Shown here piece by piece: positions 6,001 to 9,000 of a stretch of DNA of 64,000 nucleotides. This DNA comes from Escherichia coli. Lineage in GTDB: Bacteria > Pseudomonadota > Gammaproteobacteria > Enterobacterales > Enterobacteriaceae. Location of the stretch: the NCBI RefSeq assembly GCF_003018255.1, contig NZ_CP027440.1; one strand, 5' to 3'. A program made the position numbers. Position 1 is the stretch's first letter; each line of letters starts with the position of its first letter.

Positions 6001-9000
6001 ATTGAGCTTATCGTTGACGATCAGGATTCGCTACATTGCGTAACCATTCGGCGGTAAATTTGCCATCAGATGCATTGGCGAGAATTTCCGAATAGTTGGT
6101 TTTCATCGTGTATTCGGTGCGAGGTAACGCTCCGTTTTTAACCCACTTATGAATTGCAACATTTGACAACCCGCATAAACGGGCAGCGACTGTTTGACCA
6201 CCAACAGCTTTTACTGCGAATTGTATCGGATTCATACTGCTATCCATTAATTTAGTTAACTTCGAGTTAATGTTAACTATTAGCTGACAGTTATGTCAAC
6301 TATGTTTGATAATTAACGTATGGTTAAAAAAGATGAACTAAAAGAAGCGTTCTCAAAGAGACTACTACAGGCATTATTAGATGCAGGTGTGGGCGGACGC
6401 GGTCAGGCTAAGCGGATTCAGAATGCAATGAAACTGCGAGGCATTGATATCTCTGAACCGGGGATCTGGAAATGGCTTAATTCTGCATCAATTCCAGAAA
6501 AAACAAGTATTTTGGCACTTAGTGACTGGCTTTCCGTGAAGCCGGAGTGGTTGGAGTATGGCAGTAACGAGCCATCCGTAAAACAGCGACCTTCTATTCC
6601 AAACGAATCAGAATGGGGTTCCCTTGAAACTTGGGACAGAAATACACCACTACGAGATGATGAAGTTGAGGTGCCATATCTGAAAGACATTGAGTTTGCA
6701 TGCGGTGACGGAAGAGTTCATTGCGAAGATCATAATGGTTTTAAATTACGCTTCTCAAAAGCAACCTTGCGCCGTGTCGGAGCTAACAGTGATGGTTCTG
6801 GTGTGCTTTGTTTTCCGGCTACTGGTGATAGCATGGAACCCGTGATACCAGATGGAACAACAATCGCAGTAGACACAAACAACAAACGTATTGTTGACGG
6901 CAAACTCTACGCCATCGCACAGCCTGGTGTCGGTGATGAAAAACTGAAGCGTATAAAGCTATTGTACAGACGCCCCGGTGGAAAACTAATCATACGCAGT
7001 TATAACAGTGAAGAGTACCCTGACGAAGAAGCAGATACTCAAAGCGTGGAGATTATCGGAAAAGTTTTCTGGTATTCAGTTCTGCTTTAGCCCTCTCCCC
7101 CGGCCTCAGAGCCGGGTTTTTTATTAACCCAGCTAGCCAAAACTCATCTATCCTAGCTTCTATACCCCTTCATACTTGATAACCGTCGCTCACCGAACAA
7201 GCAATAATAATTAACTAAAAATCAAAAACATAGAATGCCTCCACAATAATTTTAACTTTGAGTTATTGACTAACACTAACCAACGGTTAATAATCATTTT
7301 ACCAACAGGTCACCGATAACAACGCGGTCCCAATTGGAAAGCTCTTTAAACAACGTCGAACACTCGACTACGTGGCTGCAAAGCCAGATCGCCCAACCGC
7401 ATAAGCTGTCGGGTGCAATGCCGAAGCAATCATCTCAGGGGAGGCTTCGAGATTGCATCGCCAAAGTTTATTCGGGAGAAATCTATGTCCAGAAAAACAG
7501 AATTTAAAGGCACCGCAGCTTCCCGCCGCAGAGCACACCGGGCTGAGCTTCAGAGTCTGGAGGCATCAAGCGCTGATAAACTGCACCGCCCCACACCTTC
7601 ACGGGTGTACTTACAGTGCAAACGCAAAGCCGCAATGCGAGCTGAAGTAGTCACGATAACGACATTAACCAGAAAATATGAAGGCTCTACTTGTCTTCCA
7701 AACACTGCACTTTACGCAGCTGGCTATCGCAAATCCGGAACAATAACAGCGAGGTGATTGATGACCACGCCTTCAGTTTTGCCGCAAAAATTATGGCGTC
7801 CGCTTGCAGAGATTAAAAACTTCGTTGAAAAAATGCCTGACGGCGTTCGCCTTACGGAAGTTACTAAAAAAGTTAAGACATTTGCCGAACTGTCAGGAAA
7901 GGAGAGAAACCAGCTCATAGATTTTATCGATAAACGGGAAAGCATCATTGTATTTAAGGTCAGAAAAGAAGGTTCTGGTAACGGAGTAACCTTTTTCCGC
8001 CACAAAAAATATGGATATCCCAAGCGGGAAGGAAACGTCACAATCATTAAGGACCTTCAATCAAAATTATGTACCAGATGCGGGCAGACAAAATCAGTCG
8101 ATGATTTTTATTCAGATGCCAGCAAACGTGACGGGAGAGCCATTTATTGCAAGAAGTGCGAATCTGCGATGAAACGCTCACGCAGAGAATGCAACAAATT
8201 AATTCTGCAACAACAGGAACCTGAAATGAATAACCTAAAAGCAGTTTCACCTTCACCAGAAATACTCAGAAAGCAGGCGGAAGAATTGCTGAAAGCCGCC
8301 GAAATTGCGGAGAAAAAACGCCAGGAAGATGATGTATTCAACAAAAAACTTGCGCCCTTAAAACTTGAAATTCTTCAGGCCGCCGGAAAAATGCAGCTTA
8401 AACTGGACGAATTCATCGACTGTATGGATGAAATGAATAAAGCAGTTCAGAAGCTTAAAGAGCTGACCGCCTGATATTAATAAATTGCAACTACCGGAGT
8501 TAACTATGAACGAAACAGAACTGAAGCACATTATCGCCCTGCTTCTGGAAGATGCCAGACAGGTTTATCGACTTAGCCCAAACTCCGCAACGCAGGAACG
8601 CATCCGGATGGCAGAAAAAGCGCTGAAACAGGAGAGTGAAAATAACATATCCGAAGTTAGCGCGAATGGTGAAAATGAAGCAATAGAAATAAACAGCAAT
8701 ATCAGCGACGGCGTAATAGCTTCATCCCACAAGACAATTCTCATGGGCGCACGACTTCTGGAGGTGATTACGAGTGAGCTTGAAAAGAACGGTATCAAGC
8801 CCACCCCTTGTTATTTAGAGTGTGTGTTAAATGTTATTGCTTACTCGATGTTCCGTCGGTGACAGATGAAAGTTTTCGATCAAGGAATGTTTCAAGTGCA
8901 TCGTAAATAATGGAAATCGCCCCAGACGCCTGAGTGACAACCCCGCTGCAACATCCATGTATCAATATCCTCTTTGGCGGACATCGGTTTGCCGATTGCT

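Follow-up and report, generated by a model that had tools for sequence, protein, structure and literature searches.

A probable N gene and nutL site at the start of the early-left operon of a Stx-type lambdoid prophage in Escherichia coli

Introduction

In lambdoid phages, the lytic cascade opens with N-dependent antitermination, its first switch. The 34–47 segment of lambda N binds NusA, and the leader of the lambda N gene serves as an RNase III and translational control site; in HK022, the N position is occupied by Nun. The boxB elements of lambda have pentaloops (GAAGA and GAAAA) and are preceded by an unstructured spacer of 8–9 nt, and P22 combines the pentaloop GACAA with a short, unstructured spacer. 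These pentaloops fold like GNRA loops, one base being extruded. In Stx phages, Q is reached only by way of N antitermination, on which toxin expression therefore depends.

Among the closest described systems, that of H-19B has been dissected biochemically, and N-dependent antitermination with NusA and NusG was demonstrated experimentally (PMC3526286). Antitermination was lost in mutants of the arginine-rich motif and of the C-terminal domain, mutants at the R15 and R18 positions lost function, and deletion of residues 101–127 impaired antitermination at the downstream terminator (PMC3526286). The nutR/tR1 region of H-19B is a Rho-dependent terminator that is overcome by N (PMC3526286). Here, we compare these systems with a locus in a window of 64,000 nt of E. 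coli DNA, for which a sequence-only reading had proposed an N-type antitermination circuit in a Rac-like background.

Results

The segment at 7266–7757 of the window is very probably where the early-left (PL) operon of a Stx-type lambdoid prophage begins, with its promoter, nutL, and N gene. Over the queried 701 nt, the Shigella phages POCJ13 and 75/02 Stx are 99.9% identical to the window, and gene positions in POCJ13 correspond to those of the window across 10.7 kb. POCJ13, which is classified in the Sepvirinae, genus Diegovirus, is the closest named record; it carries an identical 273-nt gene named "antitermination protein N," and the N translation of 75/02 Stx is 100% identical. This type of N and nutL is carried by ∼14% of complete E. 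coli genomes. Many RefSeq genomes of E. coli still label the N gene "hypothetical protein." In the stretch of POCJ13 examined, the nut sites are unannotated, and the matched places in E. coli show protein features only. Rfam, searched with the whole window at the gathering threshold, returned nothing, so the nut sites here fall outside its curated families.

The Rac-like background suggested earlier did not hold, because the backbone is that of a Stx-type lambdoid phage, as judged from phage-record identity, gene positions, and gene names. Names of Rac type are limited to a downstream module (kil, exodeoxyribonuclease VIII (recE), and RecT) and were taken from the POCJ13 record. The genes and transcription signals that frame the locus are as follows.

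5903..5920, minus strand: hairpin UAUGCGU-UUCC-ACGCAUA with a weak U tract, candidate tR1 region (fold z −2.6)
6008..6247, minus strand: cro
6270..6299, minus strand: PR-like promoter (TTGACA, 18 nt, TAACAT; consensus scan), predicted to drive cro, nutR, and cII
6320..7090, plus strand: cI
7099..7116, plus strand: cI terminator, followed by a T-run
7266..7294, plus strand: PL-like sigma-70 promoter (TTGACT, 17 nt, AATAAT; consensus scan, 10/12)
8976..9016, plus strand: strong intrinsic terminator, 13-bp stem followed by CUUUUU (fold −23.9 kcal/mol, z −6.1)

The minus strand carries DnaC-like, O-like, cII, and cro genes, and the plus strand carries cI, its terminator, PL, nutL, and N. This order is the one found in lambda, P22, and HK620, and the PL-operon order of cI, terminator, PL, and N is also seen in POCJ13. 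N leads the PL operon, on the same strand as cI and downstream of it. The PL-like promoter lies between the cI terminator and nutL, where PL is annotated in HK620, P22, and lambda as well; it is predicted from its sequence to be functional, with a transcription start near 7301. The PR-like promoter sits between the divergent cI and cro genes. When the PL and PR regions were searched for operators, only short common words containing TTAAC were found. For the terminator at 8976–9016, which lies inside the PL operon, none of 200 shuffled sequences folded as well. It is a candidate tL1, which N-modified polymerase would have to read through.

The N gene and the elements of its leader are listed next.

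7412..7459, plus strand: long interrupted leader hairpin, with stems of 8 and 6 bp, between nutL and the N ribosome-binding site (folds)
7474..7479, plus strand: Shine–Dalgarno sequence GGGAGA, 5 nt before the ATG at 7485 (sequence)
7485..7757, plus strand: N antitermination protein gene, 90 aa (Pfam, PHROG, and identical translation in 75/02 Stx)

The open reading frame runs from ATG 7485 to a stop codon ending at 7757 and encodes 90 aa beginning MSRKTEFKGTAASRRRAHRAELQ. The protein had been described as small, arginine-rich, and N-like, and comparison with N profiles bore this out: Pfam PF25694 (N_peptide) matched with an E value of 8.4e-26, aligning residues 1–90 with model positions 5–100 of 100, and PHROG 271 ("anti-termination protein N-like") matched with an E value of 2.4e-21, making the protein a member of the N family over its full length. 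Its layout consists of an arginine-rich motif at about residues 9–22, a central HRPTPSR, and a C-terminal CLPNxALYAAGYRKSxxITAR. The resemblance of the N terminus to the arginine-rich RNA-binding motif of N proteins was likewise upheld. Residues 13–19 read SRRRAHR, and in an alignment of 10 N proteins, including those of lambda and P22, R14 is invariant, with R15 and R18 nearly so; position 18 is His in the allele of the window and Arg in sibling alleles.

By BLASTP, the protein is 37% identical over its full length to the H-19B-type N of BP-4795 (127 aa, E value of 2e-18), which contains the H-19B N motif 12-RSRRRER-18, and 71% identical over its last 24 aa to the C terminus of P22 gp24 (E value of 2e-9). 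The C-terminal region is therefore homologous to those of two functional antiterminators, P22 gp24 and H-19B-type N. Similarity to lambda N was marginal (E value of 0.005): in this weak match, HRPTPSRVYLQCKRK was aligned with lambda NRPILSLNRKPKS, where R35 is invariant in the 10-protein alignment. The lambda residues concerned, 35–40 (an xRPxxS motif), lie inside the 34–47 segment. Binding of NusA by the central segment of the window protein is thus a prediction, made by homology with the N proteins of lambda, P22, and H-19B. PDB sequence searches with the protein and with a six-sequence profile gave no meaningful match, only chance matches of Cas type (E value of ∼0.9), and NCBIfam held no family matching N or the downstream ORF.

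The start at ATG 7485 was assigned on the basis of the Shine–Dalgarno sequence, the conservation of an M[ST]R[RK]TxF[KN]G N terminus, and the existence of four homologues that lack any upstream in-frame start. Equivalents of the ribosome-binding site (AGGAGG or GGAGA) precede the ATG in all homologues. We give very little weight to a longer form of 114 aa starting at GTG 7413, which would turn the leader hairpin into coding sequence. The frame is indeed open from 7413, and the VT2-Sakai record annotates its N gene as 345 nt. However, the 7413 start has no Shine–Dalgarno sequence, whereas GGGAGA stands 5 nt before ATG 7485, the POCJ13 annotation is of a 273-nt gene, and the Pfam alignment begins with the first residue of the 90-aa form. 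Furthermore, no in-frame upstream start exists in g341c, SPN9CC, MII_001, or HK620, and within the 72 nt upstream of ATG 7485 the hairpin loop varies while the stems are kept. With the 90-aa form retained, the hairpin belongs to the untranslated leader. In ∼80 relatives its stem is conserved and its loop variable, and by inspection the unrelated sequences found there in g341c and SPN9CC also contain complementary segments. By analogy with the lambda N leader, the hairpin may be, for example, a site of RNase III action or of translational control.

The sequence-only reading had placed a boxA-like sequence and a GNRA hairpin ahead of the 90-aa arginine-rich ORF, and all three elements were found where it had placed them. 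The two nut sites consist of the following elements.

7341..7353, plus strand: nutL boxA, GCUCUUUAAACAA (exact match)
7355..7368, plus strand: nutL spacer hairpin GUCGA-ACAC-UCGAC (folds, relatives)
7373..7386, plus strand: nutL boxB, stem UGGCU/AGCCA with GNRA tetraloop GCAA (folds, covariation)
5981..5993, minus strand: nutR boxA, GCUCUUUUCACAA, 14 nt after the cro stop codon (motif match)
5968..5979, minus strand: nutR spacer hairpin GGAC-AUUC-GUCC, followed by UACG (fold)
5950..5963, minus strand: nutR boxB UCGCU-GAAA-AGCGA (fold, covariation)

At nutL, GCTCTTTAAACAA matches exactly at 7341–7353, has the same GCTCTT(T)A core as the nut regions in the lambda and P22 records, and is invariant in all 933W-type relatives. 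The TGGCT-GCAA-AGCCA hairpin was present in both the minimum-free-energy and the centroid folds and is the putative binding site of the arginine-rich motif of N. Folded alone, the nutL segment was not significantly more stable than its shuffles (z −1.6), so support for the hairpins comes from covariation and position, not from energy. The boxA and GNRA-hairpin module is repeated after cro, where the second stem pair of boxB changes from G-C to C-G, a compensatory substitution, and the loop is GAAA instead of GCAA; the earlier proposal of an N-type circuit with a nutR candidate is supported. Downstream of nutR, the hairpin at 5903–5920 is conserved in VT2-Sakai and BP-4795 and is assigned tentatively, by analogy, to a tR1 region.

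Neither component of the module was beyond chance when counted alone: boxA with up to 2 mismatches gave 3 matches (2.0 expected), and 5-bp GNRA hairpins gave 9 (4.4 ± 2.1 expected). The composite of GCTCTTT and, within the next 10–40 nt, a 5-bp GNRA hairpin has just two occurrences in the 64 kb, at 7341–7386 (plus strand) after PL and at 5993–5950 (minus strand) after cro, with a mean of 0.015 in shuffled sequences, none of 200 of which reached two. The window thus holds two copies of a GCUCUU(U)A boxA upstream of a GNRA-loop boxB with compensatory changes, and such a module was found upstream of every homologous N gene examined.

A related-locus search with the six-sequence N alignment returned only close relatives, 83–100% identical, and for this reason stem covariation was drawn from individual phage records. 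Across 13 distinct nut sites, 100% of the cells in the boxB helix were paired, two pairs had changed on both sides, and the first pair was represented by four pair types; the covariation score was reached by 0 of 500 shuffles, and slid controls were at most 48% paired. All 17 distinct nut cores among 92 sequences keep a spacer hairpin ending at CUACG and, after it, a 5-bp stem whose loop is of the G..A form. In addition, the type of arginine-rich motif tracks the type of boxB loop, tetraloop GNAA versus pentaloop GNCAA.

The spacer hairpin GTCGA-ACAC-TCGAC, which the first reading had missed, is perfect and fills the interval between boxA and boxB. This interval is 19 nt long, and the hairpin ends at the C of the conserved CUACG. 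In relatives the stem is kept as the loop varies (ACAC, CUC, ACUC, AUC, and GCAC), and at the same position other nut sites have different, perfectly paired stems (GGAC/GUCC and GAUUCA/UGAAUC). The spacer hairpin of nutR is identical in VT2-Sakai, g341c, BP-4795, SPN9CC, and Enterobacter phage MII_001.

Being nearer to boxA and conserved in structure with covarying stems, this first hairpin (7355–7368) might itself be considered the boxB bound by N, leaving another role to the GNRA hairpin. We regard this as very unlikely. Over the sites compared, its loop varies freely from 3 to 6 nt (ACAC, CUC, ACUC, AUC, GCAC, AUUC, GUGA, GAGA, and GAAUAU), which does not fit a loop that is read sequence-specifically, whereas the second hairpin keeps G..A loops, either GNRA or the P22-type GACAA, in step with the arginine-rich motif. 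In H-19B nutR, N plus NusA/NusG protected the spacer and boxB regions, which the authors attributed to NusA at the spacer and to N at the boxB loop (PMC3526286). The GNRA hairpin is accordingly kept as the putative boxB. Also very unlikely is a Nun-like exclusion factor that would bind the boxB of a competing phage and arrest transcription instead of antiterminating on its own genome. The protein is small, arginine-rich, and at the N map position, and with so weak a resemblance to lambda N either biochemical outcome is formally conceivable, but cognate nut sites are present at both canonical positions, its last 24 residues correspond to those of two functional antiterminators, P22 gp24 and H-19B-type N, the entire protein matches the N_peptide family, and its own PL operon holds a strong terminator requiring suppression.

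Comparison with described systems places the locus close to VT2-Sakai, a 933W-type Stx phage, with which it shares a 90-aa N (86% identity), nutL boxA, spacer stem, and boxB stem (all identical), the nutR spacer and boxB (also identical), the stems of the leader hairpin, and gene order. The two differ in the loop of the nutL boxB (GAAA in VT2-Sakai, GCAA in the window), in the arginine-rich motif (RRRARRANLQ versus RRRAHRAELQ), in the immunity region (cI and operators), and in the downstream genes (gam/bet/exo versus recE/recT/kil). H-19B-type N, as found in BP-4795, has the same M-T/S-R-R/K-T-x-F-K-G start and CLPNVALYAAGYRKS...TAR end, and the BP-4795 nutR has the same two-hairpin layout with an identical spacer hairpin and UACG. 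It differs in having ∼37 extra central residues, the arginine-rich motif RSRRRERLKAKA, a pentaloop boxB (GACAA) in place of the tetraloop, and, in BP-4795, a nutL without a recognisable boxA.

P22 shares a 5-bp boxB stem closed by U-A and the boxA GCUCUUUA, whereas the N-terminal and central parts of gp24 have no similarity detectable by BLASTP. With lambda the locus has in common the circuit logic, the map position, an arginine-rich motif of the RRRxRRAE type, and the boxA core GCUCUUA; the C terminus of lambda N is different. The N protein of phiSTEC801-Stx1a, which we take to be of the phi21 type from its likeness to the phi21 sequence, has a similar arginine-rich segment (GTAKSRYKARRAELIA versus GTAASRRRAHRAELQS) and shares the C-terminal tail, but its boxB is a different hairpin, UCUCAAC-CUAACC-GUUGAGA, whose hexaloop is of a non-GNRA type. 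Neither site in the window has the pentaloop and short unstructured spacer of the lambda/P22 subtype, both loops being true 4-nt GNRA, and by its sequence the nut site is assigned to the 933W/g341c tetraloop subtype.

Discussion

What was observed at this locus is membership of the protein in the N family, two canonically placed nut modules, covariation of the boxB helix, and identity to annotated records. RNA binding, the use of Nus factors, and the terminators likely to be suppressed are predicted by homology with the N proteins of lambda, P22, and H-19B. On loss of repressor, RNA polymerase starting at PL would transcribe nutL, with its boxA, structured spacer, and GCAA boxB, and then the N gene, from which the 90-aa protein would be expressed. 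N would be intrinsically disordered, its N-terminal arginine-rich helix binding the GNRA-looped boxB on the nascent RNA and its central segment recruiting NusA, while NusB and NusE (S10) would bind boxA. Contact of the C-terminal segment with the elongating polymerase would then confer resistance to terminators. The same events would take place on the other strand at nutR, just after cro. Transcription from PL would thereby pass the 8976–9016 terminator into kil/recE/recT/int, and transcription from PR would continue beyond the tR1 region to cII, the replication genes, and eventually Q.

With a tetraloop and a structured 19-nt spacer in place of the pentaloop and shorter spacer of lambda and P22, details of the complex may differ. 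A stronger proposal, which we consider unlikely, is that the 933W/POCJ13-type N–nut pair uses a recognition mode that sets it apart mechanistically from other members of the N family, marked by tetraloop reading, site-specific affinities, and an obligatory spacer hairpin. In such a mode, the motif may read a genuine 4-nt GNRA loop with no extruded base and with A or C at loop position 2; affinity may differ between nutL and nutR, and His18 may tune binding; and the covarying spacer hairpin may be obligatory, serving for instance to bind NusA or to exclude Rho. In the literature searched, no structural or quantitative binding study of the 933W/POCJ13-type N–nut subtype was found.

The circuit is the standard early regulatory circuit of its phage group and is already known. 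It holds no new biology: identical GenBank records already name the gene, Pfam includes a model of the family, and the closely related H-19B system has been studied biochemically. Correct placement of N, nutL, and nutR is useful for annotating this prophage, and the practical gain is small.

The sole particulars of the locus are its true GNRA tetraloops, GCAA in nutL and GAAA in nutR, and its structured spacer.

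Prophage setting of the N gene

The genes around the N reading frame are those of a lambdoid phage early region. Their arrangement, with cI, PL, nutL, and N lying in one orientation and PR, cro, nutR, and cII in the opposite one, is the order annotated in the records of lambda, P22, and HK620.

Early-region features around N
3701–4225, minus strand: DnaC-like gene
4232–5314, minus strand: O-like gene
5568–5864, minus strand: cII
6008–6247, minus strand: cro
6299–6270, minus strand: PR-like promoter (consensus scan)
6320–7090, plus strand: LexA-like cI repressor
7099–7116, plus strand: intrinsic terminator (consensus scan)
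7266–7294, plus strand: PL-like promoter, TTGACT, 17 nt, AATAAT (consensus scan)

A search with positions 7100–7800 matched two Shigella phages, POCJ13 and 75/02 Stx, at 99.9% identity, and phiSTEC1589-Stx1c at 98.9%. VT2-Sakai matched at 83% from about 7335 rightward, as did many further Stx phages. In POCJ13 (Sepvirinae, Diegovirus), the same 273-nt gene is already named "antitermination protein N," with Kil, exodeoxyribonuclease VIII, and RecT annotated farther downstream. The "Rac-like" background proposed in the sequence-only reading is therefore limited to the recombination and kil module and does not describe the backbone. Of 5426 complete E. coli genomes, 762 carried this N/nutL type. 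About 15 had the exact allele (≥95% identity), with a 100% match in strain 2013C-4282; the RefSeq label for the gene in E. coli is often "hypothetical protein." The element is already known and is a member of the lambdoid phage N/nut system, 933W-type allele group.

Collinearity with POCJ13 places the predicted integrase end of the prophage near 15,580, and an integrase-size ORF lies at 14365–15528 (region about 14365–15600). On this basis, most of the window to the right of ~15,580 would be host or other DNA; the prophage late region, including any stx genes, lies beyond the left end.

The N protein

The N ORF runs from ATG 7485 to a stop codon ending at 7757 and encodes 90 residues (N terminus MSRKTEFKGTAASRRRAHRAELQ). 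Its anticipated relationship to N proteins was borne out by profile comparison: Pfam N_peptide (PF25694) covered the whole product (E = 8.4e-26), and PHROG 271, "anti-termination protein N-like," also matched (E = 2.4e-21). Identity was 86% to VT2-Sakai N, 37% over the full length to BP-4795 N (127 residues, E = 2e-18), and 71% to P22 gp24 across the final 24 residues (E = 2e-9). Likeness to lambda N was marginal (E = 0.005), with the arginine-rich and xRPxxS motifs aligned; the latter pairs with lambda N residues 35–40, within the segment (34–47) that binds NusA.

In an alignment of 10 N proteins, Arg14 was invariant and Arg15 and Arg18 nearly so, the window allele having His at 18, and a C-terminal tail, CLPxxALYAAGxRKSxxxTAR, was present in all but lambda. 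BP-4795 N carries 12-RSRRRER-18, the motif given for H-19B N, in which the arginine-rich motif mutants R15C/P and R18P antiterminate poorly, deletion of the C-terminal domain also impairs antitermination, and function on nutR/tR1 involves NusA and NusG (PMC3526286).

Translation could alternatively begin at GTG 7413 to give a 114-residue protein, the equivalent start being used in the VT2-Sakai record. However, the Shine-Dalgarno sequence (GGGAGA) stands 5 nt upstream of ATG 7485, the Pfam model aligns with the 90-residue form from residue 1, and g341c, SPN9CC, MII_001, and HK620 have no upstream in-frame start; for these reasons, the 90-residue start is preferred.

Between nutL and the ribosome-binding site, just 5' of the Shine-Dalgarno sequence, lies a long interrupted hairpin (7412–7459, plus strand) whose stems are kept and whose loop varies in about 80 relatives. 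By inspection, g341c and SPN9CC have complementary segments of unrelated sequence at this position. The lambda N leader carries an RNase III-sensitive structure at the corresponding place, and this hairpin may serve as an RNase III site or control translation.

Sequence and layout of the nut sites

The boxA and GNRA hairpin described upstream of the ORF were located as an exact GCTCTTTAAACAA at 7341–7353 and TGGCTGCAAAGCCA at 7373–7386. Between them is a perfect hairpin, GTCGA-ACAC-TCGAC (7355–7368), that the sequence-only reading had passed over; both hairpins were present in the minimum-free-energy and centroid folds. The nutL RNA reads GCUCUUUAAACAA-C-GUCGAACACUCGAC-UACG-UGGCUGCAAAGCCA. The nutR candidate, on the minus strand and starting 14 nt past the cro stop, has the same module, GCUCUUUUCACAA-U-GGACAUUCGUCC-UACG-UCGCUGAAAAGCGA: boxA, a spacer hairpin whose last base is the C of CUACG, and a GNRA-looped boxB of 5 bp, whose second pair is swapped from G-C in nutL to C-G in nutR.

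Neither single motif exceeded chance, with three boxA matches (≤2 mismatches) against 2.0 expected and nine 5-bp GNRA hairpins against 4.4 ± 2.1 in shuffles. The composite, GCTCTTT followed within 10–40 nt by a 5-bp GNRA hairpin, occurred exactly twice in 64 kb, at 7341/7373 (plus) and 5993/5963 (minus), against a shuffle mean of 0.015; none of 200 shuffles reached two. Together with the N family match and the lambda/P22/HK620-like gene order, these paired modules support the proposed N-type circuit.

In the centroid fold of nutR RNA (5945–5995, minus strand), boxA (GCUCUUUUC) pairs with the 3' half of boxB (GAAAAGCGAGC), and boxB is not formed. This pairing may be linked to the "alternative NUT RNA structures" of H-19B reportedly named in the title of a paper by Neely and Friedman from 2000.

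Covariation of boxB and comparison among phages

Across 13 distinct sites, the boxB helix was paired in 65 of 65 cells (100%), with two pairs altered on both sides and the first pair occurring in four types. No shuffle of 500 reached the covariation score, and slid controls gave at most 48% pairing. Compensated stems beyond the nutL–nutR swap were seen in homologous phages.

boxB of other nutL sites
g341c: stem CGGCU/AGCCG, loop GAAA
MII_001: stem AGGCU/AGCCU, loop GAAA
BP-4795: stem GCGCU/AGCGC, loop GACAA

A nut-core pattern search over 92 sequences (the window and 91 loci) returned 17 distinct cores, all with a preceding hairpin built on one of three unrelated stems (GUCGA/UCGAC, GGAC/GUCC, or GAUUC(A)/(U)GAAUC; loops of 3–6 nt). 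Because the spacer loop varies freely, the G..A loop is conserved, and H-19B footprinting points the same way (PMC3526286), the second hairpin is identified as boxB. Loop type follows the type of arginine-rich motif, GNAA tetraloops being found with A[AS][SG]RRR[AE][RH]RA and G(A/U)CAA pentaloops with R[SA]RRRERLKAKA. In the subclade of the window, GCAA was seen with both His18 and Arg18, and another His18 locus (L013) has GAAA, so the loop and residue-18 changes are uncoupled.

The nutL regions of g341c, BP-4795, MII_001, and SPN9CC had no recognizable boxA, with the spacer hairpin, CUACG, and boxB kept, whereas 933W-type nutL sites, including that of the window, have a complete GCUCUUUAAACAA boxA, which resembles the rrn boxA. 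Two features set the sites of the window apart from textbook lambda and P22 sites: the boxB loop is a true tetraloop, and the spacer is longer and structured. Both are common to hundreds of sequenced Stx phages. H-19B nutR has been described as two hairpins with a "tetra-loop" boxB (PMC3526286), whereas the boxB of the H-19B-type phage BP-4795 has the pentaloop GACAA. A whole-window Rfam search returned no nut family, and protein and profile searches of the PDB returned no sequence relative of N; both reflect curation gaps rather than novelty.

Candidate targets and neighboring features

By analogy with the family, the arginine-rich motif would bind boxB on the nascent RNA from PL and PR, NusB and NusE would bind boxA, and NusA would contact N and the spacer; the N C terminus would then alter RNA polymerase so that terminators are read through. 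In the PL operon, folding revealed a strong intrinsic terminator at 8976–9016 (plus strand; −23.9 kcal/mol, z = −6.1), with a 13-bp stem (GGCGGACAUCGGU/GCUGAUGUCCGCC) followed by CUUUUU, which the consensus scan missed because its loop is 9 nt. This tL1 candidate lies between ORF 8485–8862 and a kil-like ORF (9176–9409), upstream of kil, recE, recT, and int. Downstream of nutR, folding gave a hairpin (5920–5903) that is conserved and carries a weak U tract; the corresponding H-19B region is the Rho-dependent tR1 (PMC3526286).

An ORF of 237 residues (7761–8474, plus strand) starts 4 nt past the N stop (TGATTGATG), a spacing that may allow translational coupling with N. The ORF has a match to PHROG 2539 (unknown function), and its residues about 99–188 show similarity to the cysteine-rich portion of endonuclease VII, HNH, and Lar-like proteins. 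Between cII and the O-like gene are two tandem ~90-nt copies (5345–5500); a third within the O-like gene (4573–4658) has diverged, with 92% over 49 nt. These repeats may be iteron- or origin-related, or a recent duplication. Overlapping the cII 3' end on the opposite strand is an 11-bp terminator hairpin with a T-run (5592–5619, plus strand), the arrangement of the lambda/P22 oop antisense RNA terminator, which is annotated in the P22 record.
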